In this document: positions 10,362 through 63,990 of the stretch, piece after piece
Numbering within the stretch: position 1 is the first letter of the stretch
Layout of the letters: each line of letters begins with the position of its first letter
DNA from: an uncultured Candidatus Saccharibacteria bacterium
GTDB taxonomy: Bacteria > Patescibacteriota > Doudnabacteria > UBA920
Direction: 5' to 3'
Assembly (NCBI GenBank): GCA_964483665.1
Contig: CAZACP010000003.1
Span: 29,692 to 93,691, forward strand
Length of the DNA stretch: 64,000 nt
The notes under the pieces: generated by a model
Databases searched by the model: none
The model's input: the letters and a program-made list of their open reading frames with translations, nothing else
What the model was told of the DNA's origin: nothing
Position numbers and translations under genes: made by a program

Positions 10362-10367
10362 AGAGAA

Positions 10368-10730: not shown

Positions 10731-10735
10731 AAATT

Positions 10736-11588: not shown

Positions 11589-11591
11589 ACA

Positions 11592-11918
11592 TTATTCGGG
11601 GTTATTTTTTTCATTTTCGTCGTTTTTGACTTGACCGCCGTAGCCTTTCTGAGAGACTAGGTCATTTTTGTTCATTTCTATTACTTCCACATTTCCTACC
11701 CTTGCTCCTTCCGGTCCTTGTTTGGCCCAATTTACAAATTTTTCTAAAGCTTCGTCTTCACCCGAAACTTCTATTTCCACTCCTTCTTTGGTATTTTCCG
11801 CCTTGCCGGTTAAACCTAAATCCACCATTTGCAAATGCGATTCAAACCTAAAACCAACCCCCCAAACTCTCGGTCCTGAAATTTTAACCAACAATGTTTT
11901 AGTCATTTTAATTTCCAA
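11592..11918 (-). CDS. acyP: Acylphosphatase with 27-aa C-terminal tail (MNKNDLVSQKGYGGQVKNDENEKNNPE) encoded by repeat copy 2
   Basis: VKISGPRVWGVGFRFESHLQMVDLGLTGKAENTKEGVEIEVSGEDEALEKFVNWAKQGPEGARVGNVEV is the acylphosphatase signature (V.G.VQGV.FR, G.V.N..DG.V); the tail begins with an internal ATG. Confidence 0.8.
   Translation of the reverse strand: MEIKMTKTLLVKISGPRVWGVGFRFESHLQMVDLGLTGKAENTKEGVEIEVSGEDEALEKFVNWAKQGPEGARVGNVEVIEMNKNDLVSQKGYGGQVKNDENEKNNPE
11606..11673. repeat. Copy 2 of the ~70-bp tail-peptide repeat (in frame with acyP)
   Basis: Aligned by eye to 11131-11198. Confidence 0.7.
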
Positions 11919-11978
11919 ATATCAATTAATTTCTTAATTTCATGCTCTAAATCCTAATATCTTTAATATCTTATTCCC

Positions 11979-12428
11979 TCACATTTTTCCTATATCTTTC
12001 AAAACTTCTTCCGCGTGTCCTTTTGGTTCCACCTTCTCATATATTTTAGCAATTCTGCCTTCCTGGTCAATTAAAAATGAAGTTCTGGCATTCTTTCCCA
12101 TAAAACCTTCCCCGCTTACCCCGTAACTTTCTGAAACGCTTCCGTCTTCGTCGGAAAGTAAAGTAAAAGGCAAACCGTATTTTTGCGCAAATTGCTTATG
12201 ACTTTCCGTAGTGTCTGTACTTATGCCAAAAACTTCTGCGCCAATGTTCTGAAATTTAGGCAGATTGTCTCTTATTCCGCAGGCTTCCAAAGTACAGCCC
12301 GGAGTGTCGTCTTCTGGGTAAAAATACACTAAAACCCACTCGCCTAAAGAATCTTCCAGGCTATGAATACTATTATCCTGGTCAGGAAGGCTAAATAGCG
12401 GCGCCATTTGTCCTACTTGCAATTTCAT
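11979..12428 (-). CDS. bcp: Peroxiredoxin Bcp (thiol peroxidase, AhpC/TSA family)
   Basis: MKLQVGQMAPLFSLPDQ...VLVYFYPEDDTPGCTLEACGIRDN...; the FYPxDDTPGCT active site is diagnostic. The ORF track extends the start to 12527, but the internal Met with the conserved N-terminus is preferred. Confidence 0.85.
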   Translation of the reverse strand: MKLQVGQMAPLFSLPDQDNSIHSLEDSLGEWVLVYFYPEDDTPGCTLEACGIRDNLPKFQNIGAEVFGISTDTTESHKQFAQKYGLPFTLLSDEDGSVSESYGVSGEGFMGKNARTSFLIDQEGRIAKIYEKVEPKGHAEEVLKDIGKM

Positions 12429-12429
12429 A

Positions 12430-12618
12430 TTACATTTTTCTTCTAATTTTAAATTCCAAAGCCTGCTGGCTGCCTTTTTTGCTTTTGGTAATACTAATTT
12501 TTTCGCCCAAAGCCTCCATTTCCACACTGTCGCCTACCCTTAAACCCGCTTTGTCTAATAAGCTTTTAGACAAAGCCACTACCAAGCTATTGCCGGTTTT
12601 AAATATTTTCCTCTGCAT
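12430..12618 (-). CDS. AbrB/MazE/SpoVT-family DNA-binding protein (antitoxin-like), no cognate toxin adjacent
   Basis: MQRKIFKTGNSLVVALSKSLLDKAGLRVGDSVEMEALGEKISI: swapped-hairpin (AbrB) signature K.G.S..V.LPK...........GD.V. Confidence 0.6.
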   Translation of the reverse strand: MQRKIFKTGNSLVVALSKSLLDKAGLRVGDSVEMEALGEKISITKSKKGSQQALEFKIRRKM

Positions 12619-12723
12619 TACTACATTATAGACAAAAAATGCAAATTGACCAATTGACTAATTTTTGATAGATTTGTAAGCACAAAAGCCTTATAAAGGC
12701 TAAAAGAAAGAGGGACGCATGTT

Positions 12724-13413
12724 ATGATTACCCGCATACTGTTTGCCGTTCTTCTGTTGGCTTTTTCCCCAGCGCTCGTCGCCCAGGGGCAAACACTCAC
12801 ACCGGAAAAGATGCTCGAGCTGTTTGAACAGGACTCGGAGGTACGTTCGGTATTCTTTAAGGTCCTAGAGAACCACCCCGACCAACTCCGCGGAGTGGCA
12901 ATTCGGAACGCCATTTACGATGGCAACATCGGGCTCGAGTTCGACTGGTCTGTGGGCGTGTTCTCTGTTAACTTGCGAAAGCAAGGAACGAAGTTCGTAC
13001 CTTCAATGGTTTTTAACCCGAACTTCTTCTTGAAGTTCCGGGTGATAGACAAACACGACCCGGGCAACCCTACCGCCGAACGCCGCTTCAAACTGCTGGT
13101 TGTGGAAGGGGCTATGGCTCAGATTGAAGACCACTGGGAGCAAAAAAACCCTCTTCTTTTTCCTGGGGAGGAAGGGCTTCCAGCCGAACGAGCCTTTTTC
13201 CTTTGGAAGGCGGAATTCGCGGCAACCAGTCGTCAAGTTAAACTCGCCCGCGAGTGGCAAATTTTGCCACTCATGGACCACGAGCTTCTAAAGTTGGTTG
13301 ATCGTGACGGAATCGAGGAAGGTGTTAAAACCTGGATGATTCGGGTCGCTGACAAGCGGCCGGACACCAGGTGGCTCATTCCGTTCTGGGAGAGACTTGC
13401 CGCCCAGAAATGA
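12724..13413 (+). CDS. Secreted hypothetical protein (signal peptide), in a GC-rich island
   Basis: MITRILFAVLLLAFSPALVAQGQ signal peptide; local GC is far above the surrounding sequence; an intrinsic terminator follows. Confidence 0.55.
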   Translation: MITRILFAVLLLAFSPALVAQGQTLTPEKMLELFEQDSEVRSVFFKVLENHPDQLRGVAIRNAIYDGNIGLEFDWSVGVFSVNLRKQGTKFVPSMVFNPNFFLKFRVIDKHDPGNPTAERRFKLLVVEGAMAQIEDHWEQKNPLLFPGEEGLPAERAFFLWKAEFAATSRQVKLAREWQILPLMDHELLKLVDRDGIEEGVKTWMIRVADKRPDTRWLIPFWERLAAQK

Positions 13414-13455
13414 TCTCTGTCTTTCTTCCAAAACCAAGGGCGCCAGCCGCCCCGT

Positions 13456-13510
13456 ACAAGACCCCCGCTGTTCCCAGCAGCGCGCGACAAGGGTCTGTTT
13501 TTTTTTGACA
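13456..13510 (+). terminator. Rho-independent terminator (GC hairpin plus T10)
   Basis: caagacccccgctgttcccagcagcgcgcgacaagggtctgtttttttttt. Confidence 0.7.
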
Positions 13511-13870
13511 TTGTTCAATAAAATGTGTAATGTACATCCAACTAACCGAAAACCAACTTCCACACTTCCCTCTCGGGAAGCTGGATTCGGGTAATCGGAC
13601 GCAAGTACGGGACTGTTGATCTTTTAGCTGCCTGACACGTGCCTCCATTGTCAGGACAACAGTCCCGAACATCCAATCCAGGAGGATTTATAAATAAAGT
13701 AAGTTGGGGATTAAAAAACCCTTCTTCTAAAAAATCCGTAGGATCGCGCATCCCCATCAGGCTGGATGCGTTTTTGTTTAAAAAAATTGTCACTTTATTT
13801 TTTTAAACTACTACTAATTTAAATTAGATTATAAATAAATTACACATTATAATGTCTGTTAAATCAGTAA

Positions 13871-14350
13871 TTATATTTTTTCCTTGCCTTCTATTAAACT
13901 TTCAATTTTTTTAATATATTCTTCCGGCAAACGGTTTTCGTAGGCCGCGGCAATAACCCGCCTAAAATACTCCTGCCTATACTGCATTCCCCCGCAGTTA
14001 CCCACGGGTTCAATATAAACCTGGGCTTTATATTTTATGTTATGGTCGTCAAAAACCGTAACTTCTTTTCGGTCAAACACAGTCGGATAACCTTCAAAAT
14101 CGTCGAGCATACCAAGGCCGTCTTCGTCCACGCTGTAAAGTATGCCAAAAATCTCAGCATTTTCTTGCGGGTCAATATTTAAAAAGCCCCGTTTGTCCAA
14201 ACAGTTACCATAGCCGCTAAGCCGCGCCCGACCCAAAAACTGGCAATGCCAGCCGCAAATGCGGCGCATATGTTCCAGGCTCATATTGCTGCCGTAGGCA
14301 AAGTAATACATAAAGAAAGTATAAAGTATTAAGTATAATGTATCAAGCAA
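13871..14350 (-). CDS. Gamma-glutamylcyclotransferase (AIG2/GGCT-like) family protein
   Basis: YYFAYGSNM motif (hallmark YFAYGSNL); the start is probably the internal Met at about 14311. Confidence 0.8.
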   Translation of the reverse strand: MLDTLYLILYTFFMYYFAYGSNMSLEHMRRICGWHCQFLGRARLSGYGNCLDKRGFLNIDPQENAEIFGILYSVDEDGLGMLDDFEGYPTVFDRKEVTVFDDHNIKYKAQVYIEPVGNCGGMQYRQEYFRRVIAAAYENRLPEEYIKKIESLIEGKEKI

Positions 14351-21759: not shown

Positions 21760-21788
21760 TTGACAAAAAATGCAAAATATGATACAAT
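21760..21788 (+). promoter_or_regulatory. Near-consensus sigma70 promoter (TTGACA, 17 nt, TACAAT) for the S8 peptidase gene
   Basis: ttgacaaaaaatgcaaaatatgatacaat; AGGAGG Shine-Dalgarno at 21805-21810; ATG at 21820. Confidence 0.6.
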
Positions 21789-21819
21789 ATACAAACAGTT
21801 CCGAAGGAGGAACCTAACT

Positions 21820-23940
21820 ATGCGTTTTGCAACGCTTCTTTTTGTCTTTTCTTGCGTACTTGTTAGCGCGCAAGAACGCTTTTCAACTCGTGCCCTGACC
21901 TCACAGGGCTACATAACCCGGGAGTATTGGGCGGGCGAGATAATCGCAAAGCCCAAAGGCTACGCCGGCGTCTCGGCCAAAACCGAAACCCGCTCCGCTC
22001 TCGCTGAAGCCGTAGTTGATGCTTTGGGCTACGCGTACATCCCCCACACCGGAGATGTCGCATCACTCACTGCCCGCGCTACCGCAATGTCAGCAAACCC
22101 AGACTTCGAGTCGGTTTCGCTGTCGCCGGTAGCCAAAGCAGACCAAGCGCCTCAGCCTGTTAATGACCCAGCCTTTTGGCTGCAGTGGGGTCTTGGCAAT
22201 TCCCTGCCCGCTGGCTCTTCGTGGAAGCCAAGCACCAAGAGGTTTGACAACCTCTACATCGGATCGTTTGACACTGGCGCCTGCTTCGGTCACGAGGACT
22301 TTGACTGGAGTAGAAATGAGGTCAAACTCAACTACAACGCCATACTCGCGCCAAAATCACCCGAGGCCATACCTTTTGACGACAACGGCCATGGGTGCGC
22401 AACTACCGGCATCGTCGCAGCCAAGTCCAACAACCGATTAGGTATTTCGGGTATGGCGGACAACGTCAAGACCGCATACATAAAGGTTCTCGATGCTAAG
22501 GGCAACGGCAAGGTCAAGGACATTGTTTCCGGCATTCTCGAATACGCAACCCGCGTCAAGAATATGCCGGCAGGGTCTAGATTCCTTGCCATAATGGCTT
22601 TCGGCTTCGAAGAACAGGTGCCGCCCATCGAGGAGGCCGTCCAAATCGCCCGCAAAGCAGGGATCATGTTCTTTGCTTCCGCGGGAAACGAGGGTTGGGA
22701 TCTAAGCCGCTTTAAGAAAACACCGGCAACAACTGACGGCGTAATCTCGGTAGCGGCCTGCACTCCCCAAAACGAGCTTGTAGTTAAGACGTTCTGGGCT
22801 TCCAACTACGGGAATCCCGTACTCGGGTGTGCCGCGGGAGTAGAAGTCTGGACAACGGTTCCAAAGCCAACAGAAAGCAGCAGCTACGAACTAGCAGACC
22901 CTTCCGGCTATAAAATGCTTGAGGGAACGTCGTTCGCTGTCTCTTTCTACGCCGGTGCTGCTGCCCAACTCATAAACGAAAAACCGGATATATCCGAAGA
23001 GGAAATCCGGATTCGGCTTATGAACGGCAACCGTAAGGTTGCGCCCGCTACGATTTGGAAACGGTCTTATCAAGGTCCGGATCTGTTCGTTTCAGGCAGC
23101 AGCCTCTACTTACCAACTGCCCTGGCGGAAGATAACCAAGCTCCGGCGCAACCGGTTTTGGAAATCACGCCCGGCCACAGCTCGGCTCGCATAAGGCTTT
23201 CAGACACGGAAAGGCCGTTCGGCATTCGCTGCGCCTATGGCAACATAGGCGACCAGCAAATACTCGAACTGGTGCCGTACTTTGGCAACGAGGATATTAT
23301 TCTCAAAAACCAAGACGGTACCCCGCTTCCTTCCTCCACCGACCTTCAAGTCGCGTGCAAAATGGTAGACGGCGCCGGCAACTGGTCACCTCTTTCCCGC
23401 GGGGCTTCGTTCCACACCAAGGAAAGCAAAAGTGAAGCGGTTTCGCTCAACCTGTTCAACGCCAGTCTGGGTCCCTTGGGCGACATAATTGCCCAGGCTG
23501 ACCCAAACACCAGGCCGTTATGGTCTCCTAAGGAGTTCCCTCTGCTGGGACAAATGACCTGGTACGCCGGAACACAAGCGTTGAACTACCGGGTCGGCGA
23601 CAACGACTCGGTACTGGTGTCCGAACCCATCGCCCTACCCGAGGGCTCAGTGTCAATTAATCTGCGACAGTTTGTGCAGATGATTGGCACCCGCGCCCAA
23701 GGAATGCACTTTGACAGCTCAGAACTGTCAGTGCTGTGGCAAGAGGACGGCCAAGAACGGCAAAAAGTCCTTCGGCAGATAATGCCGAACTCCAAAGAGT
23801 TCGGGCTAGAAGCCTTTCAACTCGACGTCACCGAATTCGCGGGCAAGACCGTCCGCCTCCAATTCCGCCTGTTTACCAACGGCTCCTCCGTTGGCATAGG
23901 CTGGATTGTCGGGGCCGTGGAGGTACGTAGCGACAAGTAG
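21820..23940 (+). CDS. Secreted subtilisin-like serine peptidase (S8 family), in a GC-rich island
   Basis: Signal peptide MRFATLLFVFSCVLVSAQE; catalytic triad motifs GSFDTGACFGHEDF (Asp), NGHGCATTGIVAA (His), GTSFAVSFYAGAAAQL (Ser). The ORF track start at 21760 lacks a Shine-Dalgarno, so 21820 is preferred. Confidence 0.85.
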   Translation: MRFATLLFVFSCVLVSAQERFSTRALTSQGYITREYWAGEIIAKPKGYAGVSAKTETRSALAEAVVDALGYAYIPHTGDVASLTARATAMSANPDFESVSLSPVAKADQAPQPVNDPAFWLQWGLGNSLPAGSSWKPSTKRFDNLYIGSFDTGACFGHEDFDWSRNEVKLNYNAILAPKSPEAIPFDDNGHGCATTGIVAAKSNNRLGISGMADNVKTAYIKVLDAKGNGKVKDIVSGILEYATRVKNMPAGSRFLAIMAFGFEEQVPPIEEAVQIARKAGIMFFASAGNEGWDLSRFKKTPATTDGVISVAACTPQNELVVKTFWASNYGNPVLGCAAGVEVWTTVPKPTESSSYELADPSGYKMLEGTSFAVSFYAGAAAQLINEKPDISEEEIRIRLMNGNRKVAPATIWKRSYQGPDLFVSGSSLYLPTALAEDNQAPAQPVLEITPGHSSARIRLSDTERPFGIRCAYGNIGDQQILELVPYFGNEDIILKNQDGTPLPSSTDLQVACKMVDGAGNWSPLSRGASFHTKESKSEAVSLNLFNASLGPLGDIIAQADPNTRPLWSPKEFPLLGQMTWYAGTQALNYRVGDNDSVLVSEPIALPEGSVSINLRQFVQMIGTRAQGMHFDSSELSVLWQEDGQERQKVLRQIMPNSKEFGLEAFQLDVTEFAGKTVRLQFRLFTNGSSVGIGWIVGAVEVRSDK

Positions 23941-26854: not shown

Positions 26855-27112
26855 AAGTTTACATTTTAATCTCTCTCCCCAGGATTTGGGGAGAGTTGGA
26901 GAGAGGTCGATATAGCTTTAAAGCTACAGAACTACTAAATATAATACACTACAGAAACCTACAGAATTTATAGATTTGTGTAATGTACGTAGATTTTACA
27001 TTTTGTAAGTATATTATAGAACTTTTATAGGCAAAAGAAAACGAGCCGCGCGGTGTGTCCGCACGACTCATAAAGGGTGCCTCCGACCCGATCGGTCTGC
27101 GGTTCTTCTAAC

Positions 27113-27415
27113 CTAAAACAAACCGTCAGACGGCCGTCTTTTCCGCCAACCCATAGAACCACTGTGAACAAGGTCACTCTGTTTCTCATAAATAACAGTG
27201 GTCGAGCTTGGCGCACTGCATTCTTGCCCCGTCAAATCCCAATGCGTCCAAATCCATGAAAAGACGAGAATCACACCAGCTCCGGTAGCCAGAAGATGAA
27301 AAGCCTTCAGTGTCCAGAGTCCGCCTTGGCGGATTTGCCCAAAGGCATCGACTCCGCCATACACAACAAACACCAACAAAGCCACAAAAAGCGCCCGTTT
27401 CAGCACCGTCTTCAT
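27113..27415 (-). CDS. Small 2-TM membrane protein (GC-rich island), hypothetical
   Basis: AAGGAG Shine-Dalgarno precedes the internal Met MKTVLKRALFVALLVFVVYGG...; the ORF track's longer 181-aa version lacks a Shine-Dalgarno. Confidence 0.4.
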   Translation of the reverse strand: MKTVLKRALFVALLVFVVYGGVDAFGQIRQGGLWTLKAFHLLATGAGVILVFSWIWTHWDLTGQECSAPSSTTVIYEKQSDLVHSGSMGWRKRRPSDGLF

Positions 27416-28079
27416 TAACCCACTCCTTTCAAAGAAAATGACCACGATGCACAATAACACTCGTGGATAGCTTAAATTTTGAATAATTTCTACTCTTATG
27501 TCAATCCCCCTGCTGCTTGACAGGCAAAAGTAAAAGGCGCTGGGGAAACGAAAATAGAACTCGTTCCCAGCGCCCGGGTTTGCGGTTGCGAATTCGCGAG
27601 CCGTAGATGTTAGAAACACCGACGACCCACGTTTGAAAGAAACCATAACAGCCGCCACAGACGTACTTTCAGCGGTGTATGCATTATCCCCTCCCCGGCC
27701 GGCAGAATCTAAACAATGTAATGCTCCAACTCAGCCGGAACCGAATTCGCTTTTTGCGCTTTACAAGCGCATAAACGTCATTGAAAAAATCAATCGCCCA
27801 CCCGCGTGGATAGCTCCCCACTACAAACAAAAAATCTCTCACTGTACTATCTTTTTCCATGGGACCTCCCATTCCCAACAAGTTTAGCAAAATACATTAG
27901 ACTTGTCTAAAAATTCATTAATTTGACTAAAAATTATTTTTTCAGTAAACTTCGTATATCTTTCGCACATGCTCAGTATGTGCGTAGTAGTACGTTTCTC
28001 CGCAAGGAGAACCTCTAACGTACTTCTGGTCCGTTGCCCCAGCCATAGAGGTGGCTGGACTTTCAACAAGGAGTGGAAA

Positions 28080-28772
28080 ATGTCAGATTTTCGCAAGCTG
28101 TTACTTGCGTTCGCTGCAGTGACCCTCTTCGCAGGGATTGCCAGTGCCGGCCCCGCGCCGGCGCTCAACCACACCGCCCAACCCTTTTCGGTGCGGGATG
28201 ATGCCACCAGCGCTATCGCGCCAGACATCATTTCCATCGATGTTAAGATGAATCAGTTCTTCTCGGTTTGCGGCGCAGGTCTCCAGGCGCCGGCGTGGTT
28301 GAATGAATCGGGGTTGTCAGTGATGGACAACGCCCAGTCGCTGAATATCGGTGCTCCGGCGCTTCCGCCGGCACCGAATATCGCCGCTCTCGAATCCGGT
28401 ACCGCTGTCGCTTCCGGCAACGCCCCGATTATCGCGAACACAGGCCAGACCACGTTGTCTGCGCCTTCCGCCCAGGCTACCGGCACTACTGCCGCTACGC
28501 CCGCCAACCTGCTGAACTCGAATTCCGCTAAGAATACGGCTAACCTACTGAGCCAAACGACGCTGGGTTCGAATATCCTGAACGGCACAGCCAACACCAA
28601 CAACCAATTCGCGGTTGTCGACGGTAACCCTGCAGCCGACTCTTCTGTTCTTTTCAACGCTGACGCACCAGACGCCTCTACGAGCGCTGGTCAGACTGCC
28701 GTTGCAACCCATCTCGCTGCCCCTGCACAGGTCGCGAGAACAGCTCCAACGCATGCCGGCTCCGCCGGCTAA
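28080..28772 (+). CDS. Secreted low-complexity Ala/Asn/Thr/Ser-rich protein (GC-rich island)
   Basis: AAGGAG Shine-Dalgarno, then MSDFRKLLLAFAAVTLFAGIASA signal peptide; the ORF track start at 27969 is upstream and in frame. Confidence 0.5.
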   Translation: MSDFRKLLLAFAAVTLFAGIASAGPAPALNHTAQPFSVRDDATSAIAPDIISIDVKMNQFFSVCGAGLQAPAWLNESGLSVMDNAQSLNIGAPALPPAPNIAALESGTAVASGNAPIIANTGQTTLSAPSAQATGTTAATPANLLNSNSAKNTANLLSQTTLGSNILNGTANTNNQFAVVDGNPAADSSVLFNADAPDASTSAGQTAVATHLAAPAQVARTAPTHAGSAG

Positions 28773-28794
28773 CAGCAGCGAAAAGCCCCGCAGG

Positions 28795-28830
28795 GCGCCT
28801 TCCTCACGGACGGCGCCCTCGGTTTTTTTT
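28795..28830 (+). terminator. Rho-independent terminator
   Basis: cagggcgccttcctcacggacggcgccctcggtttttttt. Confidence 0.75.
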
Positions 28831-28961
28831 ATTTTACTATTTATATATCTGTGTTCTCTGTGTAAAAAAAACTGTGTATATTTGACAAAATATTTATTCT
28901 GCTTTAGTATTTATTTTACGTAGCCCCCAAGGGGGCAACTATAGACACAAGGAGTGTATGT

Positions 28962-29075
28962 ATGAAGCGTTTAAAGATGGCCGGTGCCGCGCGCGCCCAC
29001 AAGGATGTCACTCAGGTTCATGGCGTTCTCGAGGACATTCTCGAAGCGAACGCGGGCACGAAGTCCGACGTCTAG
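28962..29075 (+). CDS. Possible 37-aa small protein MKRLKMAGAARAHKDVTQVHGVLEDILEANAGTKSDV
   Basis: AAGGAG 7 nt upstream of the ATG; followed by the hairpin gggctcccgtagggagccc; below the ORF-track size cutoff. Confidence 0.3.
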   Translation: MKRLKMAGAARAHKDVTQVHGVLEDILEANAGTKSDV

Positions 29076-29392
29076 TTCATCCTGGCTCGGCGCCGCAAGG
29101 CGTCAGAGGGGCTCCCGTAGGGAGCCCTTCAATCATACGTTCATATTATACAGCTCTCATACCCAGATGAGAGGCGGCGGGGTAACACCCGCCGTGACCA
29201 GCTAGCAGCATCCCCTCGCACAAACCCGGAACGAAAGTTCTGCCCAAGCACCCTTACCAGGGCTAAGCAGAACCTTCGTTTCCGGGTTCGTTTTTTACCT
29301 AAAAAATTTTAAAGGCTCAATCGGAGTGAGCCTTTAAAATAGTAAAAACGCCCAAAGCAAAACTGTGCTTTAGATTTTAAAAAACCTAAGAC

Positions 29393-41955: not shown

Positions 41956-42508
41956 CACTTTACCCTAATATTTCTATTAGGCGTGGACTATATCATTCCG
42001 CCAGAGGCGGACGAGGGGCTTCCCAATCCCACATAGTGGGATAAGTACTCTCTTTCGAGATAGTCTCTGAACCTTCAATGACTTTTCGTCAAAGCTTGGC
42101 TGCTGATTGCCATATCCTTATAAGGATTTAGGGTTCCAGCAATTCACCTCGTTTTTCACTTCCCAATTGCTTGAGAAGGCTGCAATAGACCGGCATGAAT
42201 TTCCTTATGACAGTTGGAACAAATAAGTACGCACTTATTTAGTTCTGCTAAAGTTTTTTGCCAGGACCTTGTTAGGCCATTGGCACCAAGTCCAAAACCT
42301 TTGGTTTTGGGGTCAAGATGATGAAACTCTAGGGCACCGGCGCAACGGTTATATCCACAAAATTGGCATTTGCCACCTTTGTGGGCTATTGCCATTTCTT
42401 TAATCTTTTTGCGCCGTTTGTCTACTGCCTTTTTAAGGTATTCTGCGCGGTCGGAATATTTCCTTTTATCAGGCATAAATTTATGTTTACTGATAAAGGG
42501 TAGTGTTC
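41956..42508 (-). mobile_element. Group I intron (conserved P, Q, R, S elements) with embedded HNH homing-endonuclease ORF
   Basis: In RNA sense: P GUGAAUUGCUGGAACCC, Q GGCAAUCAGCAGCC, R GGUUCAGAGACUAUC, S AUGAUAUAGUCCACG, P9 hairpin CCUAAUAGAAAUAUUAGG, terminal G. Confidence 0.75.
42156..42476 (-). CDS. HNH endonuclease (intron-encoded)
   Basis: CQFCGYNRCAGALEFHHLDPKTKGF...NGLTRSWQKTLAELNKCVLICSNCHKEIHAG: the HNH His-Me finger with two CxxC pairs. Confidence 0.85.
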   Translation of the reverse strand: MPDKRKYSDRAEYLKKAVDKRRKKIKEMAIAHKGGKCQFCGYNRCAGALEFHHLDPKTKGFGLGANGLTRSWQKTLAELNKCVLICSNCHKEIHAGLLQPSQAIGK

Positions 42509-57114: not shown

Positions 57115-57143
57115 TTGACATTTTAGTTATTTTTAGTTATAAT
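57115..57143 (+). promoter_or_regulatory. Perfect sigma70 consensus promoter (TTGACA, 17 nt, TATAAT)
   Basis: ttgacattttagttatttttagttataat. Confidence 0.65.
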
Positions 57144-57149: not shown

Positions 57150-57510
57150 TTAACCTTTAACAGGGTTAATATTAACAATCTATATATCTTGCCTGAAATG
57201 TATGATTTTAGAGTGAATAACCTAAAACTTATATTTCTAAACATTCTGACAGGAAGGAATGTTTAAGGCAGATCCAGCTAAAGTTAATAAGTCTAAAGTG
57301 TTTAGTGCTGTATATAACCCTTCTTTGGTAAAACTACGAAGGGCAAGCAGGAATTTACGGCTCTGACCGCTTATATAACTTCCTAGCAAGAAGTGCGACC
57401 CTTCATCATGCTAAAACATGGTGAATGGGACACTCCTTGCTAACCCCTTTCTAAGCCTTGTGCGAAGTAGGGACTAGATTTAAAACCCTTCCTGTCCGGA
57501 AGGGTTTTAA
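57150..57510 (+). ncRNA. Candidate ~350-nt non-coding transcript or leader RNA (promoter to intrinsic terminator, no ORF above 25 codons)
   Basis: Lies between the consensus promoter and the terminator aaaacccttcctgtccggaagggtttt (57480-57510); no tmRNA or RNase P signature motifs seen. Confidence 0.35.
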
Positions 57511-57596
57511 ATTGCTAAGGACGAAAATATGTAAAATTATTCTCCCTTCTTTTTTGCAGATTACACATAGCCTGTAAAAATGAAGGGAGAGGAAAT

Positions 57597-57899
57597 ATGG
57601 TATGCAATGAAGGGGGCTGCACCGCCCCGGTAACGGTGCAAAATGGATTCGTTCCCGCCCTGGCCGAAATTTCGGCCTTGGCAGGCAAGCCGGTCACCCG
57701 GCTTACCGAGAACGAGGTTCTCGCAGTCGGATACTGCGAGGACTGTGCTGCCATCCATGGGATGTGCGGCGGCAAAAAGCTTTTCTCCGCCAGCCGCGCG
57801 CTGGCGGAAATAGAAAAACAACAAAAGGCGGCTAACCACGCCGCCGCCCGGCAAACGCTGGGCGCGGCATTTGTGGCCGCAGGCTTCCAAGCCAAGTAG
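57597..57899 (+). CDS. Small Cys-rich hypothetical protein (first gene of the GC-rich island)
   Basis: MVCNEGGCTAPV...GYCEDCAAIHGMCGG; Shine-Dalgarno GGGAGAGG; GC-rich. Confidence 0.5.
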   Translation: MVCNEGGCTAPVTVQNGFVPALAEISALAGKPVTRLTENEVLAVGYCEDCAAIHGMCGGKKLFSASRALAEIEKQQKAANHAAARQTLGAAFVAAGFQAK

Positions 57900-58108
57900 C
57901 CTTGGAAGCCAAACGCACGCGAGGGAGTTAGAGAGCAGCACACTCTTCTAACTCCCCTTTCTCCAGCTCGTGATTGTAAAATCATTGGCTGAAGATTGTA
58001 ACCGAACTAGCGGTCATACTAGGAAGCTGGTCTGTCTCGCCCAGTATAAAAAAGGCAACCTGCCATACCACAGACAGTGGTGCAGGAAACTCCTAGGAGG
58101 GGTTATGA
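57882..58108. repeat. 227-bp perfect direct repeat, copy 1 (hairpin-hairpin-conserved element-Shine-Dalgarno-ATGA)
   Basis: Identical by eye to 58528-58754. Confidence 0.85.
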
Positions 58109-58512
58109 TTGTTTTGATTGAATTAACTAAGTCAACGCGGGAACACCCCGCGGGGAGCATACTGAAAATTTGGGGGCCCTTTGCCTCGGAGGAGGAGGTA
58201 AAAGAAAAAGAGCCTATAAGAAAAGGCTCAGATTTTGTTATTTCAAACCTCACTGGTTCACAAACCGGTGTGGGGGAGATATACCTCCTCCTGTTGTTGG
58301 GAAACTACGACAGGGGGATAGGAGGAGATTCATGGGCCGAATGCCCTAGAATGTGGGGACCCTTTGCCTCGGAGGAGGAGGCGGAAAAAATAATAGCGGA
58401 AGAAAAGGAACTCGAAAAAGGTTTCTTTTCCATGGGGGACAAATGGAACCCCCAATGTACTCCCGAGTTTCGTATTTTCTCAGGGGGGATTACACCCCCG
58501 AAGGACATGTAA
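58105..58512 (+). CDS. Hypothetical protein with internal duplication (WGPFASEEE x2)
   Basis: AGGAGGGGTT-ATG; 135 aa; the ORF track's longer version starts at a GTG inside the repeat. Confidence 0.5.
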   Translation: MIVLIELTKSTREHPAGSILKIWGPFASEEEVKEKEPIRKGSDFVISNLTGSQTGVGEIYLLLLLGNYDRGIGGDSWAECPRMWGPFASEEEAEKIIAEEKELEKGFFSMGDKWNPQCTPEFRIFSGGITPPKDM

Positions 58513-58527
58513 CAATGTCCTGCCGCT

Positions 58528-58754
58528 GGCTTCCAAGCCAAGTAGCCTTGGAAGCCAAACGCACGCGAGGGAGTTAGAGAGCAGCACACTCTTCTAACTC
58601 CCCTTTCTCCAGCTCGTGATTGTAAAATCATTGGCTGAAGATTGTAACCGAACTAGCGGTCATACTAGGAAGCTGGTCTGTCTCGCCCAGTATAAAAAAG
58701 GCAACCTGCCATACCACAGACAGTGGTGCAGGAAACTCCTAGGAGGGGTTATGA
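58528..58754. repeat. 227-bp perfect direct repeat, copy 2
   Basis: See copy 1. Confidence 0.85.
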
Positions 58755-59863
58755 AAATTCAATACAGACAAAAAGGTCAAGCTGTGACCACAAAGGTCAC
58801 ACGCATTGTGGAGATAACCACACTGCGGGTGAGAAACGACAACATGGTCGCAAAGGCTCACCGCCTAAAATACGAGGAAATCCCTCTCAGCGATGGCACC
58901 TTAAATCCGAGGTGTCCGGTGATTTCTTTTGTTACCAGCCAGTTATACAACGGCTGGTGCAAAATTCAGAACTTCAAAAATGAGAATCCCCAGTTTAGGG
59001 GGATCTTTTTGAACATCGACAACGGCAAGTACGCCTTTGACGATGTGAATACGCTGTTCGCGAGCTGGGAGGATATCTATCCAAATCAGCCCGTGCCGGA
59101 AAAAATAGCTGCCACCCGTGCGGCTATCAAACAACAAAAAGAAAAACGGGAGGCCGAAGAGGCCACTCGTAAACGCAATGAACAGGCCGCACGGGAATAT
59201 TACGAGGCTCAGACAAGTCTCGCTCGAGATATTCTCGGCGATGTGGTTGAAAGGGTTTCGATTAAAACGCTCAATAATGAGCGCGTCACCCAGTTGACCG
59301 CAAACGTAAAGATTTGTGGTCAACAAATCGAAATGACAGTAAATAAATATGCTCCCGATGCTCGGGGGCTGGCTGAAAAAGTCAGGGAACTCGTCCAAAC
59401 CCTGACCGAGAAAGACCTGGCAGAAATGCCGGGCGATCCGACATTTACCCTTTACTATGAAGTAAAGGAATGGTGTGGGAGTTGGGAACTCGACGGCCGC
59501 AGCCTTGAGCACGCGCGAAAAAAGGCTGCAGAAGCCAGCCGGGCGGAGTCCGCCCGCCAGGCCGAAGAAGCCAGAAGGAGGGAGGAAGAGGAAGAGGCGG
59601 AAAAAAAACGGCAATTTGCCGCAGAGCAGGTCTTAGTCAAAAGGCTTGCCAAACCGCTCAATCTCCGGAGTGAAGAACTCTATGGGGTGCCGGTAGATGA
59701 AAACTTGGCGCCCTGTGAATCAGGTAGTACCTGGGTTCTATATTCGTATAGAGCCCAAGACGATAAATACTACCCTGGAGCTCTTATGCCCCACAAGGGG
59801 TTCAGGAGTAAGTCCACGGGGCGGACGCTCCAGGAGCTGATTCGGGATTATACCCGCCGTTAA
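58751..59863 (+). CDS. Hypothetical protein with a charged coiled-coil region (370 aa)
   Basis: AGGAGGGGTT-ATG; ...AEEATRKRNEQAAREYYEAQ... and RREEEEEAEKKRQ. Confidence 0.5.
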   Translation: MKIQYRQKGQAVTTKVTRIVEITTLRVRNDNMVAKAHRLKYEEIPLSDGTLNPRCPVISFVTSQLYNGWCKIQNFKNENPQFRGIFLNIDNGKYAFDDVNTLFASWEDIYPNQPVPEKIAATRAAIKQQKEKREAEEATRKRNEQAAREYYEAQTSLARDILGDVVERVSIKTLNNERVTQLTANVKICGQQIEMTVNKYAPDARGLAEKVRELVQTLTEKDLAEMPGDPTFTLYYEVKEWCGSWELDGRSLEHARKKAAEASRAESARQAEEARRREEEEEAEKKRQFAAEQVLVKRLAKPLNLRSEELYGVPVDENLAPCESGSTWVLYSYRAQDDKYYPGALMPHKGFRSKSTGRTLQELIRDYTRR

Positions 59864-60093
59864 ATTTACCTTCGTTTTTAGTAACAAAACGAGGGCGTCT
59901 GTCCGAGCGTCATCCGGACAAAAACTTTGTCATTAGCCTAGCAACACACACGCTAGCTAATGACCTTTCTCCAGCTCGTGATTGCAAAATCATTAGCTGA
60001 AGATTGTAAAAATAGTTCTTTAAAAACTCTTCTCCTTTTTGGGATTCTTGCCATAAATTTTATGGCAAGTGTCCCCAACAGGAGTGGGGTGAA

Positions 60094-60519
60094 ATGAAAT
60101 TTGTTTTTATTATGCAGCACGCGCCGACCACCGACCAGGTGGCCGATGCGCGGCGTATGGGTTTTACGGAAGTAGGCGCTTTTGCGCCACTGCCGGAAAA
60201 CCCGATCGAAGGCGTAAAGTATTTGGGACTGACCCAAAACCTTTACGTTCCAGAAGATTTAGGACTAGAAAGGGACTGGTTTGTAAACCAGGCCCAAACC
60301 ATTCTACAGCTTGCCGGCGTTAAATCCGGTGACGCTATTGTGGCCGCAGGTCACGCCCAGCTAATGACCGCGGTTAATGCTGTGGCAAAACAGCTGGGCA
60401 TCGCCCGCTTTGAGTCCGTAACGGCCCGGGTGTCCGAGGACATCCATGGGTCTGACGGCTCGGTCAAGACAGTCCAGGTGTTCAAGCACCTGGGCTATAG
60501 GAAAATTTTTGACTTCTAG
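60094..60519 (+). CDS. Hypothetical protein (141 aa)
   Basis: Preceded by a conserved 45-nt element and the Shine-Dalgarno aggagtgggg. Confidence 0.5.
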   Translation: MKFVFIMQHAPTTDQVADARRMGFTEVGAFAPLPENPIEGVKYLGLTQNLYVPEDLGLERDWFVNQAQTILQLAGVKSGDAIVAAGHAQLMTAVNAVAKQLGIARFESVTARVSEDIHGSDGSVKTVQVFKHLGYRKIFDF

Positions 60520-60835
60520 ATACACGGGAGCTCTGGAAATTCGCACTTTCCATCTCCCAACCTTTTTCCAGCCAATGATAAGTTAATAATAATACTTGAT
60601 TGGCTGAAAATTGGTTAAACTAAAAACTTTGAAGAAAGCAATATGGCAGTTTGTTTAAACTACTATCTTGTTTTCCTTAAACGGAAGACGGAATTAAAGA
60701 TGTTCCCTAAAGCCACGGGAACCGCCTATTTTAGGAAGAACGTAAGGTGACGCTGTGTTCGCAAAGGGCAGCTAGAAAATACCTTTGTCCGCAACTCTCT
60801 CTGGCGAAATAGAGGGAACCCTATAAGGAGGGGTT

Positions 60836-61555
60836 ATGAATTGGTACAACGTGGTTGGGAAAAACGGGATCTCTTTAAGGGACCTCACAGACGAGGACGG
60901 ACAAAAATATGTTCCCGCCCTTTTCAAGGGCGAGGAAGTAAAGTTAATTCGTCATAACAATGGCTTCGATTTTGAAGATATCGAAGCTGACCAGGTAGGC
61001 CAGGAGATATGGGCCTACCCAATAAGCGTTTTTTTTCCAGACAGTGAGGAAATCACTGAATACGGTTGGCCGGAAGGCTCAATCGTGGAAAAAAACCGCA
61101 AGGGTCCCTTCATTAAGGGGGGGCGTAGCGGGGTCATCTGGGCGACATCATACGATATGGCGAAAGCAGAAGTCAGCCTTCGGGCATGGCTTAAGGGTAG
61201 AGAGACCTACCAAATCGGCTTTTGCCACAGAGATGGCGATGCGGGAATTTTTCCGCCACCTCCCGAAGGCTATATGTACCATGAGGTACATGGTCACTGG
61301 GAGGGGTCAAAATTTGGGCTGGCGTACCCGAAACCCATATACAAATGTAGAGTCCCAGGATATGGTTCCTGGCTCAATCATTGGGAAGAGTGGCTTGCAG
61401 GGTGCCGCGGGTACGACCAGATGGAGGTCGTACCAGGAAGTTTGGTCTGGATTCAAAACGAAGATTATGATGCTAAATGGATACAGGTAGAAGACCTAAA
61501 AGGGTGGCAAGACCAAAACCCCTTTAAGGTTGTTATGCCCAAATTTCCAGACTAG
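60836..61555 (+). CDS. Hypothetical protein (239 aa)
   Basis: AAGGAGGGGTTATGAATT start module. Confidence 0.5.
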   Translation: MNWYNVVGKNGISLRDLTDEDGQKYVPALFKGEEVKLIRHNNGFDFEDIEADQVGQEIWAYPISVFFPDSEEITEYGWPEGSIVEKNRKGPFIKGGRSGVIWATSYDMAKAEVSLRAWLKGRETYQIGFCHRDGDAGIFPPPPEGYMYHEVHGHWEGSKFGLAYPKPIYKCRVPGYGSWLNHWEEWLAGCRGYDQMEVVPGSLVWIQNEDYDAKWIQVEDLKGWQDQNPFKVVMPKFPD

Positions 61556-62073
61556 TAGCGGCAGACTCATCTCGCCGCCGGGGTTGATTCCCCCGTTAAA
61601 GCCCTTATGTCCACACCTTAGGACTTGGGCAAAACAATCATCCGCTTTCCTGGCGGAGCCGGTGGTTATTTCATAAACCCGTCGGCAAACAGGAAGCATT
61701 CATACGGCCAAACAGCACTCGCACTGTTTGTTTGGCCCTCTTTTCCAGGCTGTCATATTATTTTAAATTCCTGTGTTGCTTAGGCAATATAAAAATATCA
61801 TGGCAGCCTGAAAATAGAAAAATAGTTCTTTAAAATTTATTGGAGGAAATAAGAAAGATTTCCTGTCTAAATAGTAGATTAATACTTATCTATTGCTTCG
61901 ACAGGAAATCTTAAATCTCCTAGTCGGTTAGTTGTAAGGACCGCTGGGTTAAAAGCCCGGCATTGTGCTGTTGTTTGTTTTAGTTTAAGAACCGCGGCAC
62001 TTTGGCCGCTTTGCCCAGTTTTGCGTGTTCATCGCTCTTTTAGTAGGGCTTACTGTCCAGTGAAAAGCTGACG

Positions 62074-63006
62074 GTGGGTATGTTGGGAAACCAGACCCAT
62101 GAACACGTACAAGGTCAACAATCTTACCGTGCCGGCGTGATCCGGCAGATGGAGATAAAAATGAAAAAAGTTACTCATGATATTGACCAAGCAACCCGCA
62201 CTTATTTCGAGATGAAAATCCGAAATAAGGGTCAAATAAAGATCATCCGACTGTACCTGCGGAACCGATATGGGGTTCCGAAAATCGAAAGCCTTTTTGA
62301 AAAGGCTGAAAGTTTAGGACAGGAGGGACTGGATTTTACAGCACTCGGTGTGCTGTACACGAAGCGCTTTCCTAAAGCCTTACCTGTCTCGTGCATCACC
62401 CTGGTCAACCTGGGGTGCGATACAGACGAAGCAGACTGGCTGTTTGTGCCGGATGAGTGGAAGCCGATAGGTGTCTCGTTTTACGAGACACAGCAGCAAA
62501 CAAAGGCTGCTCGGACAAAAAACCTCTTCAACTCTGTCGTTGGTAGGATGGAAGAGGCCTTCAAGGATTTACCAGCAAACTGGAATGTCCAGATAGGGGA
62601 AGGTAAAGCCATGTTTTGGCTTAATTTCCACCCAACTGACACTCTCACATTTTGGTCCTCCACAAGTAGTCCTGTCAGCTCTCTAACCGGAGAACAGGAG
62701 GATGTGGAAAAAGCAGTACAGCTTTTTTTGCAAGAGCGTTCCCAGAGAAAAATCTGGGATCAAAGACTTCAGATCGTCGCCGATAAGTTCGGCGACAAAG
62801 TTTCCATCGGAAGTCACCAGATACAATTCAAAGAAGCAAAGGCGATAATCGATTCGATGGAGTTCGACGGGAAAATAATCCTCTATTGCTTCCGCAATGA
62901 AGGTGATGAGGACTGGGTGTTCTTTAATCGGGTTGAATGGACAAAGTCAGCACATCCCGACTATTCGTACCTATTCTCGCATATTGATTTTGCCAACCGT
63001 TTTTAG
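62074..63006 (+). CDS. Hypothetical protein (start uncertain; may be an internal Met at about 62152)
   Basis: ORF track 310 aa. Confidence 0.45.
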   Translation: MGMLGNQTHEHVQGQQSYRAGVIRQMEIKMKKVTHDIDQATRTYFEMKIRNKGQIKIIRLYLRNRYGVPKIESLFEKAESLGQEGLDFTALGVLYTKRFPKALPVSCITLVNLGCDTDEADWLFVPDEWKPIGVSFYETQQQTKAARTKNLFNSVVGRMEEAFKDLPANWNVQIGEGKAMFWLNFHPTDTLTFWSSTSSPVSSLTGEQEDVEKAVQLFLQERSQRKIWDQRLQIVADKFGDKVSIGSHQIQFKEAKAIIDSMEFDGKIILYCFRNEGDEDWVFFNRVEWTKSAHPDYSYLFSHIDFANRF

Positions 63007-63347
63007 CAACAAAACGAGGTGGCGAGTCTAGAGCCGTAATCTAGACAAACACTCCTAAAGGAGGAATGTTTGTATTAGCCCTTAAATGGGCAACACTCGT
63101 GGGATGAGACAACTCATCCCCTTTCTCCAGCTCGTGATTGTAAAATCATTAGCTGAAGATTGTAAAAATAGTTCTTTAAAAGAAGTAGAGCACGGGCGCG
63201 CTCTAGTGTGCGGGCCTGGATCTTTGCCGGCTTCTCTTTACCCCGAGAAACCTGGCTGTGAGTAAACACATAAAAAACCGAATGTAACATCGTTAAAGTA
63301 CCTGCTCTAACCCGAGATACGGGTGGCGGAGCTCCCAAGGAGGGGTT

Positions 63348-63647
63348 ATGAATTCTTTGCAAAAATTTTCTGAGGCAACGTTACAGTTGCCCTCAGGGCA
63401 TCGGTTGTTGTGCATAAATATAACCGCTAACCCGCGGTGTAATAGATTCAGAATTCTCTGCGTACCCGACAAGTGGTACGATGAGAACGGGACATCATCT
63501 CTTTTTGATAATATTGATACCCCGGAAAAAATTTTTGCCCTCCTGGCGTCCCTCCGGGGCATAAATGCCAAGGAGTGGATTTACGTAAATGGGCGGGCAC
63601 GGTGGAGGAGTTTTATCCCACACAAACCCCATCGAAAAACGCCCTAA
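63348..63647 (+). CDS. Hypothetical protein (99 aa)
   Basis: AAGGAGGGGTTATGAATT start module identical to the one at 60826-60843; a terminator follows. Confidence 0.45.
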   Translation: MNSLQKFSEATLQLPSGHRLLCINITANPRCNRFRILCVPDKWYDENGTSSLFDNIDTPEKIFALLASLRGINAKEWIYVNGRARWRSFIPHKPHRKTP

Positions 63648-63656
63648 CACGGTTTG

Positions 63657-63700
63657 GCGCGGGGTCGTTTCGCACAACGACTCCCGCGCCTTTTTCTTTT
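63657..63700 (+). terminator. Intrinsic terminator, ggcgcggggtcgtttcgcacaacgactcccgcgccttttt
   Basis: Read directly. Confidence 0.75.
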
Positions 63701-63917
63701 GTATAAAAAATAGCAGCACCCTCCCCTAACCCCTCCCCTCAAGGGAGGGGAACAATCTGTTAAACTTTATACTTCCCCACCCTCGTTCTCTTTAAACTAA
63801 ACACCACTCCACCTGTTTTTAATTTCTTACCAAGGTCGTGGGCTATGCTGCGGATGTAGGTACCCGAACCTACAGAAATTTTAAATTTTATAATTTTAAA
63901 TTTTAAATTACTGTTTT

Positions 63918-63990
63918 TGTCATTCCCGCGAAAGCGGGAATCCAGCTTTTTATTTATTCTGGATCCCGGCTCGGAGGCCGGGATGACACG
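63918..63990. repeat. GC-rich palindromic element, long form, family copy 4
   Basis: tgtcattcccgcgaaagcgggaatccag ... ggatcccggctcggaggccgggatgacacg. Confidence 0.7.

Follow-up and report, generated by a model that had tools for sequence, protein, structure and literature searches.

Double-hairpin modules and cassette-level variation in a GC-rich island of orphan genes on a CPR chromosome

Promoter early stem-loop (PeSL) elements combine a stem-loop with promoter motifs and are found upstream of ORFans in those parts of T4-type phage genomes known as hyperplastic regions (Arbiol et al. 2010, PMC2839356; Comeau et al. 2014, PMC4122927). Indels in these regions end in the motifs, and mini-circle formation has been described for them (PMC2839356, PMC4122927). 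Here we describe an island of seven GC-rich orphan genes, g1 to g7, located at 57.5-63.7 kb of a 64,000-nt stretch (the window) of contig CAZACP010000003.1, which belongs to an uncultured bacterium of the candidate phyla radiation (CPR). By comparison of the architectures, PeSL cassettes are the closest known system. The island resembles them but does not appear to be a member, because it lies in a bacterial chromosome, because its modules have no consensus promoter and because these modules are built from two hairpins. Integrons and phage T7 offer further points of comparison. An adjacent IntI is required for a complete integron, but not for a cluster of attC sites lacking integron-integrases (CALIN), and known attC sites are longer than ~40 nt. 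The early genes of T7 are separated by RNase III processing hairpins. CPR bacteria (Patescibacteria) have very small genomes, and their acquisition and expression of foreign genes is little understood; in the literature on CPR integrons or hypervariable islands we found no description of an arrangement like the one reported here.

Our best reading, to which we give a probability of about 0.5, is that the spacers of the island hold regulatory modules acting in the sense-strand RNA, and that these modules double as portable homology for the shuffling of gene cassettes. The island (57-64 kb) has a G+C content of 0.42-0.51, compared to ~0.33-0.44 in most of the window, and the G+C content at third codon positions (GC3) is 0.51-0.68 for the seven island genes and 0.26-0.47 for 16 neighbouring host genes. 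An earlier annotation made from the sequence alone (the first-pass annotation) had described the region from 57.5 to 63.7 kb as GC-rich compared to the host and its seven open reading frames (ORFs) as co-oriented. Both composition measures bear out the first statement, although the island is not the only such patch, and all seven ORFs (57597-63647) indeed lie on the + strand. Only 68% of the island is coding. Equal or higher G+C contents are reached at 22-24 kb (0.55) and at 28-29 kb (0.56). The first of these patches (21760-23940) holds a gene for an S8 subtilase with a GC3 of 0.61, the second (27000-29300) holds orphan genes including one at 28080-28772 (GC3 0.65), and the modules of the island are absent from both. 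The island fills a slot in the chromosome between the genes for deoxyhypusine synthase (DS) and TrmB on one side and for TruB on the other, and its chromosomal context also includes RpoD and DnaG. Homologues of the host TruB are found in Parcubacteria/Paceibacteria-like CPR bacteria.

All spacers between the seven genes (6/6) have the same layout: a variable GC hairpin (H1), the motif TTTYTCCAG, a second hairpin (H2), the motif CTGAARATTG, and then a leader. TTTYTCCAG is the end of a pyrimidine run that pairs with the purine run CTGAARATTG, which makes H2 a long imperfect hairpin directly adjoining H1. The most common type of H2 is a 45-nt element with a GNRA loop (GUAA or GCAA), for which we found four exact matches (57957, 58603, 59965 and 63121), while none is expected by chance. 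On the + strand, module 1 (57923-58001) consists of H1 at 57923-57956 and the 45-nt H2 at 57957-58001, module 2 (58569-58647) of H1 at 58569-58602 and H2 at 58603-58647, and module 3 (59929-60025) of H1 at 59929-59964, H2 at 59965-60009 and the extension AAAAATAGTTCTTTAAAA at 60008-60025. Module 4 (60526-60614) has H1 at 60526-60558 and a diverged H2 with the same flanks at 60559-60614, module 5 (61707-61835) has H1 at 61707-61738, a long H2 at 61739-61818 and the extension at 61818-61835, and module 6 (63101-63181) has H1 at 63101-63120, H2 at 63121-63165 and the extension up to 63181. In modules 4 and 5 the common H2 flanks enclose very different interiors of 38 and 65 nt. Modules 3, 5 and 6 are those continued by AAAAATAGTTCTTTAAAA, and g3 and g6 share 3′ hairpins just past their stop codons. 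The first-pass annotation had counted five copies of the 45-nt element and a variant. The four complete copies and the diverged one (60563-60613) are real, its positions were off by 4-12 nt, and what it took for a partial copy at 61826 is the extension at 61818-61835, which follows a full diverged module at 61739-61818.

Including the copies from two relatives (contigs L008 and L004), eight different H1 sequences were seen, all of which fold (−13 to −22 kcal/mol), and H2 comprises 4-5 types of interior between 28 and 75 nt in length, again all folding. The hairpins preceding each element thus differ in sequence while the structure is kept, as had been proposed. A pattern for the H2 flanks (TTYTYYAG ... 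CTRAARAT) gave six matches compared to 0.16 expected, all on the + strand and all in spacers of the island. Our module scan of this genome covered ~70 kb (the 64-kb window and 7 kb beyond). No match was found in the other 57 kb of the window, in the L001 extension or in the host parts of the related contigs L006 and L007, which argues against ordinary genome-wide intergenic repeats, the check that had been suggested. The 45-nt element, the start module described below and a perfect 227-nt repeat are likewise confined to the island, with no copies in the rest of the 64 kb. This repeat (57882-58108 and 58528-58754, + strand) was present with 100% identity as annotated, and extends to 233 nt with one mismatch. 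Its first copy spans the 3′ end of g1, H1, H2, a 106-nt leader, a Shine-Dalgarno sequence and ATGA, and the second copy holds module 2. As an exact pattern, the H2 element was not found in IMG/VR or in GTDB genomes, and at permissive E-values Rfam gave only chance-level miRNA-like matches in the island. Other readings of these repeats were considered and rejected. The motif GCUGAAGA in H2 is not a hammerhead ribozyme, as modules 4 and 5 have CUGAAAA and neither stem II nor GAAA is present. The repeats are identical rather than A-mutated and no reverse transcriptase is present, so they are not the template and variable repeats of a diversity-generating retroelement, and a double-stranded dif/Xer-like site does not agree with an H2 length that varies from 28 to 75 nt.

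The comparison of orthologous modules, suggestive rather than statistical with so few genomes, points to hairpins that are structured in the sense-strand RNA. Where the window and L008 differ in H1, the changes fall in loops, and those in H2 are unpaired, keep the GNRA loop or change A-U to G-U; one H2 difference breaks a C-G pair. In L004 the closing pair of H2 is changed from C-G to U-A. For several H2 copies and for all modules of a distant CPR island (contig L009, see below) the + strand folds more stably than its complement, with values for the L009 modules of −44 to −47 kcal/mol and 2-5 G-U pairs on the + strand compared to −31 to −44 kcal/mol and 0-1 G-U pairs on the − strand. This strand preference and the G-U pairs suggest that the structure is formed in the sense transcript.

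The first-pass annotation had viewed the 45-nt element as a conserved promoter or operator. Our data do not support this view: the interior varies between modules, the element behaves as a sense-strand RNA hairpin, and sigma70-like −35 and −10 sequences can be read in a subset only. In the whole region 32 sigma70-like sites were found, compared to 24.7 ± 5.7 expected, which is near chance. The main-type modules gave no promoter match on the + strand, and IG4 and IG5 gave only 9/12 matches. A weak CTGAAR-N17-19-TAAAAN is readable in modules 3, 5 (as CTGAAA-17-TAAAAT at 61808-61836) and 6 and in three L008 modules. For a 74-aa gene of L008 and a 268-aa gene of L004 the ribosome-binding site (RBS) directly follows H2, so there is no room for a promoter.

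The only consensus sigma70 promoter (TTGACA-17-TATAAT, 12/12) lies at 57115-57143 on the + strand, is directed into the island and stands back-to-back with the promoter of trmB (57021-56993, − strand). Its homologues in L008, L004 and L006, likewise perfect, stand at the head of the island there. In the window it is followed by a structured leader of ~360 nt (57150-57512, + strand) without a credible ORF and without an Rfam family, which is conserved in L008 (7546-7940) with two helices replaced or compensated and which is closed by a bidirectional intrinsic terminator (57478-57512). From its conservation and predicted folding, this leader is a candidate for a new structured RNA and could be a riboswitch-like gate for the island. 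At the right end a terminal intrinsic terminator (63656-63701, + strand), consisting of a GC hairpin and TTTTTCTTTTG, is kept in L008 and L006, and resembles an internal module that lacks H2. Taking a GC-rich hairpin followed by at least 5 U in 8 nt as the criterion for intrinsic termination, the terminal terminator has 7 U, the H1 tails have 4-5 U, and a U-tract is missing from the L009 modules. By this measure H1 resembles an attenuator or a 3′ stabiliser rather than a full terminator. For the hairpin ggcttccaag/cttggaagcc, the role of terminator given to it earlier is unsupported: it shares bases with the stop codon of g1 and has no conserved counterpart in L008.

The leaders between H2 and the ORFs are 87-331 nt long and are common to non-homologous genes. 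The start module AGGAGGGGTTATGA was confirmed at four genes (58095, 58741, 60826 and 63338) compared to 0.02 occurrences expected, in agreement with the earlier count. An identical 106-nt leader precedes g2 and g3, and the leader of g7 shares its last 43 nt; the g7 start module (63310-63351, + strand), a small hairpin with compensatory changes followed by CTCCYAGGAGGGGTTATGA, is common to g2 and g3. A hairpin at 57538-57593 (+ strand; TCTCCCTTC...GAAGGGAGA), with an H2-like core TTTTTTGCAG...CCTGTAAAAAT, is predicted to sequester the RBS of g1. The conserved g5 leader (60692-60835, + strand) is structured and shows compensatory changes in its helices. It is 81-84% identical in nucleotide sequence to its counterpart in L004 (1002-1148), while the g5 protein is only 47% identical, a comparison in which the non-coding part is more conserved than the protein. 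These features make the leader a candidate cis-regulatory RNA. Another conserved leader, IG5 RNA (61836-62148, + strand), is 92% identical to its copy in L008 (12372-12690) and 79% to that in L004 (778-952). It has a 12-bp 5′ hairpin with a covarying apical stem and stands upstream of three different genes in the three genomes; in L004 it precedes the g5 leader. Scans of GTDB genomes with the g5 leader and of JGI metagenomes with IG5 RNA gave no match. A third type of leader (GGAAAGC...GTAAAGCCNG..GTCCCAGCYGTAAATGGGATGG) was seen in L006 (1500-1620 in the reverse complement of 9901-13500) and in L008 (10720-10850), where it precedes orphans of 301 aa and 409 aa, respectively, whose proteins have no BLASTP similarity.

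Members of this lineage could be reached only by protein look-ups in assemblies from ENA, Logan and NCBI, and the relatives recovered in this way show that the content of the slot changes by whole genes. In L007 (TruB 56% identical) the interval is empty and DS adjoins TruB. In L006 (TruB 68% identical) it holds a single GC-rich orphan of 301 aa with the perfect promoter and a structured leader upstream. L004 has two orphans, one of them the g5 homologue, and L008, the closest relative with ~83% nucleotide identity to the window, has six genes. In the window itself the interval comprises the seven orphans, a gene for a 747-aa protein and trmB. Window and L008 have g1, g3 and g4 in common; L008 lacks g2, g5, g6 and g7 and has genes for proteins of 74, 409 and 254 aa instead. 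An ordinary operon of lineage-specific genes with plain terminators or stabiliser hairpins, a few local duplications and no cassette mobility would account for the co-orientation, the one strong promoter and one strong terminal terminator, the lack of detectable mobility genes and the occupation of the same slot in four relatives, but not for a slot content that differs in every relative (0-7 genes, mostly non-homologous), nor for identical leaders and 3′ modules on non-homologous ORFs, for breakpoints at module edges, or for the foreign composition and low coding share of the island. This explanation is already disfavoured by the data, and we consider it decidedly unlikely. The proposal of the first-pass annotation that the spacers belong to a cassette system rather than to an ordinary operon agrees well with these gene-sized gains and losses.

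The differences between the window and L008 have their breakpoints at either base of H2. At the exact place where the window carries g2 between two copies of the 227-nt block, L008 has g1 and g3 connected by a single copy. The two copies in the window are identical to each other, and each differs from the L008 copy at ~12 positions, which argues for a recent duplication or gene conversion, as the perfect identity of the repeats had suggested. The gene for the 74-aa protein of L008 starts right after CTGAAGATTG of the g3 module and ends in its own H1 and H2. Downstream of g4 the two genomes share one H1, joined in each of them to a different H2 interior. The H2 that follows g4 in L008 is a homologue of the window H2 after g5, and in L008 IG5 RNA stands behind a further, different H2. 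Window H1(a)+H2(x) hence corresponds to L008 H1(a)+H2(y′), and window H2(y)+IG5 RNA to L008 H2(z)+IG5 RNA. Since these joins differ between the genomes, exchanges have occurred at both bases of H2. L008 additionally has a CopG/BrnT toxin-antitoxin pair (13568-14117, − strand) between the island and the TruB gene that is not present in the window, another indication of a hot spot at this slot.

As the source is metagenome-assembled and several short-read assemblies (Megahit contigs) break inside the 227-nt block, one might suspect a chimeric join or a repeat collapsed or expanded during assembly. Such breaks are as expected, because a true repeat of this length exceeds the k-mer. Contig L017 from another sample spans g1, block, g2, block and g3 at 99.9% identity and has a private single-nucleotide polymorphism in one copy of the block. 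The part from g2 to g3 is also spanned by L003, L023 and L024, and the part from g1 to g2 by L018 and L019. Because independent contigs span the duplication, chimerism is very unlikely, and orthologous islands are present in L008 and L004. The joins at 57.8-58.8 kb, for which a check of read support had been advised, are supported by independent assemblies from public data; an artefact is already refuted as far as public assemblies allow, and can be virtually discounted.

Breakpoints exactly at the bases of H2 could also be explained by site-specific capture as in integrons. H2 would then be an attC-like folded site with inverted cores (TTTYTCCAG and CTGAARA), the island would be a CALIN-type cluster, and the cores would be cut by a tyrosine recombinase encoded elsewhere, e.g., Xer. 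Small co-oriented orphans, each followed by an imperfect hairpin of 28-75 nt with conserved inverted bases and a variable interior, would be in line with this, as would the 74-aa cassette of L008 that begins right after CTGAAGATTG, the swapping of H2 interiors independently of their flanks, and the analogous architecture with a different sequence in L009. However, Pfam searches revealed no recombinase, integrase or transposase in the 64-kb window and 7 kb beyond and no phage gene in the window, and a regular-expression search of both strands of all seven spacers for attC cores (RYYYAAC...GTTRRRY) gave 0 pairs. The main-type site has only ~40 nt, less than known attC sites, and leaders of 87-331 nt separate the site from the ORF. 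The G-U pairs favour the sense strand, consistent with RNA, and the insertion of g2 duplicated 227 nt including leader and 3′ untranslated region, which is predicted by homologous (Campbell-type) recombination and not by site-specific recombination. We therefore consider an integron-type mechanism very unlikely. The notion of a recombination-driven cassette array, put forward in the first-pass annotation, finds no support as far as a site-specific mechanism is concerned. The same holds for its suggestion of a phage-like or plasmid-like origin: searches of phage and plasmid collections (blastn and tblastn) and of IMG/VR revealed no similarity to the island, and there are no mobility genes in the 64 kb. 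Altogether its cassette idea was largely right, while the promoter/operator and phage/plasmid parts are unsupported.

The independent exchange of H2 interiors relative to both flanks, together with terminal terminators that read CCTTTTTC joined to TTTTGTATAAAAAATAG, like an internal module without H2, may alternatively indicate that H2 is a small palindromic mobile element, similar to miniature inverted-repeat transposable elements (MITEs) or repetitive extragenic palindromic (REP) sequences, which inserts into the U-rich tails of terminators, so that the modules would be colonised terminators. The host does have other REP-like palindromes. For H2, no target-site duplication is visible and no transposase was found, the orientation is always the same, and copies outside the island are missing from the ~70 kb and from the host parts of L006 and L007, which makes this explanation extremely unlikely. 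The REP-like palindromes (GTCATTCCCGC...GCGGGAATC and GGATCCCGGC...GCCGGGATGAC) occur in several CPR loci: at 63916-63990 of the window, in L006, at 10752-10790 of L008, and at 5456-5494, 6210-6248 and 7366-7392 of L009. In L008 one of them is inserted in the loop of a leader hairpin.

We favour the view that the DS/TrmB-TruB slot holds a hypervariable array of accessory genes, GC-rich and acquired by horizontal transfer, in which each gene would be packaged by H1 and H2 on its 3′ side and by a shared structured leader and an extended Shine-Dalgarno start module on its 5′ side. The modules would act in the sense transcript, where H1 may attenuate read-through, protect the 3′ end, or both, H2 may be a processing or insulating hairpin that in some copies overlaps a weak promoter, and the leaders may control translation. 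In this way, a single strong promoter (57115) followed by a long gated leader could serve for the expression of unrelated foreign ORFs. As the modules recur in every spacer, they would also provide homology for recombination, by which whole cassettes could be inserted, deleted and reshuffled, in the manner of PeSL cassettes in T4-type phages. The gene g2, flanked by the perfect 227-nt repeat, would represent the most recent event, and the direct repeat around it would be the expected trace of a single crossover of a 646-bp circle, or of an unequal exchange, through the module.

Several points weigh against this view. The breakpoints coincide with short invariant motifs (8-11 nt) flanking H2 on either side, and breakpoints of this kind agree with site-specific or microhomology events no less than with homologous recombination. 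As a terminator, H1 would be weak at best. The strong terminator at 57478-57512 sits between the sole consensus promoter and g1, and the internal sigma70-like sites are near chance, both of which weigh against a simple picture of how each gene is transcribed. The proposed RNA-level roles are deduced from folding and substitution patterns in 2-3 genomes per element. As the module was scanned in only ~70 kb of the genome, it may be spread genome-wide.

The g3 family, the only protein family that the island of the window has in common with the islands described in the following, led to analogous islands in distant CPR genomes. In L009, a 516-kb CPR contig, and in L010 an island of five co-oriented orphans has 59-60% GC with flanks of ~42%. 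It contains four copies of a 72-nt double-hairpin repeat, in which a variable GC hairpin with compensatory changes abuts a conserved hairpin with pairing flanks, and its leaders and start modules are repeated as well. The sequence of the repeat is unrelated to the modules of the window, and of the genes only the g3 homologue is shared. A comparable style is seen in L011, with ~65% GC and AT-rich ends. These islands indicate that the architecture recurs in CPR genomes and is no quirk of one locus. Directly 3′ of the last island gene, L009 (11207-11266, + strand) and also L010 have a candidate type III hammerhead ribozyme core. In L009 the CUGAUGA...GAAA core and three stems are complete (41.8 bits, E 1e-6, below the Rfam gathering score of 48.5), and the candidate lies upstream of a cluster of three tRNA genes (tRNA-Thr/Tyr/Thr).

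All seven genes of the island are on the + strand. The first, g1 (57597-57899, GC 0.61), encodes a Cys-rich orphan of 100 aa with an 83% identical orthologue in L008. The 135-aa orphan g2 (58105-58512), which is not in L008, has an internal 183-nt tandem repeat (58167-58207 versus 58350-58390). Each repeat unit contains WGPFASEEE(A/V), a motif of the GPFxSxxEA type as in SPOR and DUF1816 domains. The N- and C-terminal domains of the 370-aa protein g3 (58751-59863) are also found separately. Nine relatives were found among 1.8 billion representatives, none of them with a Pfam domain. Searches of IMG/VR with the full g3 protein and then with a profile of its C-terminal domain gave no matches, and the search of JGI metagenomes gave one 1.3-kb groundwater contig. 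The gene g5 (60836-61555) encodes an orphan of 239 aa, whose sole homologue is that in the DS-TruB slot of L004; its predicted structure model is unusable, with a predicted local distance difference test score (pLDDT) of 44. The orphan g6 (62149-63006, ~285 aa) was first assigned a GTG start at 62074. Because the upstream stretch is conserved non-coding RNA, the start is probably the ATG at 62149 or at 62161. The last gene, g7 (63348-63647), encodes an orphan of 99 aa. Searches of the PDB by sequence with g4, g5 and g6 gave no match.

When all seven proteins were compared to Pfam, PHROG, NCBIfam and PADLOC, the only signal was a remote similarity of g4 (60094-60519, 141 aa) to Csx20. The first-pass annotation had recognised no domain in any of the ORFs. 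Indeed no Pfam or PHROG family was found above threshold, but since g4 is a remote relative of Csx20/MJ1673, this statement was slightly too strong. Residues 6-137 of g4 align to positions 4-123 of the 124 positions of the NCBIfam profile NF040559 (Csx20) with 28.9 bits and an E-value of 1.2e-6, the score being below the cut-off of 70 bits. The PADLOC model for Csx20 gave an E-value of 3.7e-6, and a match to Pfam MJ1673 (PF27247) is on record. The orthologue in L008 was the only homologue found, and no cas genes or type III CRISPR locus are present in the window. On this basis g4 is a candidate for the ring nuclease fold that acts on cyclic tetra-adenylate (cA4). For Csx20 itself, cA4 ring nuclease activity has been confirmed by experiment, and the protein is also found in four phage genomes (PMC12409355).

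Together with the absence of CRISPR genes nearby, the full-length match of g4 to Csx20 models (E 1e-6 to 3e-5) raises the possibility that the cargo is the remnant of a mobile element or a satellite with counter-defence genes, in which g4 would be a ring nuclease of the viral anti-CRISPR type and the divergent TrmB-type helix-turn-helix (HTH) regulator would control the orphans, as in acr-aca loci. Such a cargo would be compatible with the modular shuffling that we favour. The arrangement of the small orphans downstream of a strong promoter, with the HTH gene running the opposite way, and an L009 island that adjoins tRNA genes and has a candidate hammerhead point in the same direction. The score of g4 is, however, far from the family cut-off, no island gene is similar to phages, plasmids or IMG/VR sequences, neither an integrase nor att repeats were found, and L004 and L006 have orphans but no TrmB. 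We therefore regard this origin as unlikely, if worth keeping in mind.

Elsewhere in the window we noted a group I intron (Rfam RF00028, 64.9 bits) at 41964-42208 on the − strand, whose 5′ part is overlapped by an HNH-like ORF (42156-42476, − strand). No rRNA or tRNA match was found around this intron.

Considering the little that is understood about foreign genes in CPR bacteria, the locus presents one chromosomal slot that fills with GC-rich orphans in shared, portable modules, and that holds different genes in close relatives. Should the modules work in the proposed way, they would form a plug-and-play scaffold for expression and recombination, and would offer a mechanism for the flux of accessory genes in ultra-small symbionts. 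The locus also supplies candidates for further study: at least three conserved leader RNAs, the ~360-nt leader that may gate the island, and a stand-alone Csx20-like protein outside a CRISPR locus. A more far-reaching idea, to which we attach little credence, is that CPR bacteria have an unrecognised system for capture and expression of gene cassettes. H2 would be the counterpart of attC used by a recombinase encoded elsewhere, H1 and the leaders would make captured ORFs expressible, and at least two versions unrelated in sequence (window and L009) would be linked by the g3 family, which may bind the hairpins.

Compared to known systems, the island shares features with several of them. With integrons and CALINs it shares co-oriented, mostly orphan and compositionally foreign small genes, an imperfect hairpin after each gene, in which inverted bases are conserved and the centre varies, and presence or absence at the level of cassettes among relatives. 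It differs from them in that it has no IntI, cores of the AGC/GCT type instead of AAC/GTT, shorter sites, long leaders with shared 5′ modules, wobble pairs that point to sense-strand RNA, and a newest insertion that duplicates 227 nt. Like the early region of T7, it has a strong promoter region on the left, a terminator on the right, and co-oriented genes with conserved imperfect hairpins of about two helical turns between them, which could leave a protective hairpin at each 3′ end. Unlike T7, it has the additional GC hairpin H1, variable H2 interiors and a chromosomal context, and processing is predicted only. REP sequences and bacterial interspersed mosaic elements (BIMEs) are likewise repeated intergenic hairpins able to stabilise the upstream mRNA and to promote rearrangements; REPs are found genome-wide and in both orientations, whereas the modules described here are all on the + strand (6/6) and only in the island in the ~70 kb checked. 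The individual protein g4 resembles Csx20 remotely over its full length in the NCBIfam and PADLOC profiles, but scores under the family cut-off and has no type III CRISPR locus nearby.

The closest likeness remains that to PeSL cassettes. Both systems have composite intergenic repeats consisting of a stem-loop, a conserved sequence, a Shine-Dalgarno sequence and the start codon, and in both these repeats precede small co-oriented ORFans where the genome varies most. In both, indels and replacements between close relatives end in the motifs, and duplicated motifs flank single ORFans. The island differs by its location in a bacterial (CPR) chromosome instead of a T4-like phage, by modules of two abutting hairpins with long structured leaders, by the lack of a consensus sigma70 promoter in these modules, of which a subset has only the weak CTGAAR-N17-19-TAAAAN, and by the absence of sequence homology to PeSLs. 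Repeat-mediated modular shuffling of ORFan cassettes is a known kind of system, and we see here a new variant of it, in a bacterial chromosome and with double-hairpin modules.

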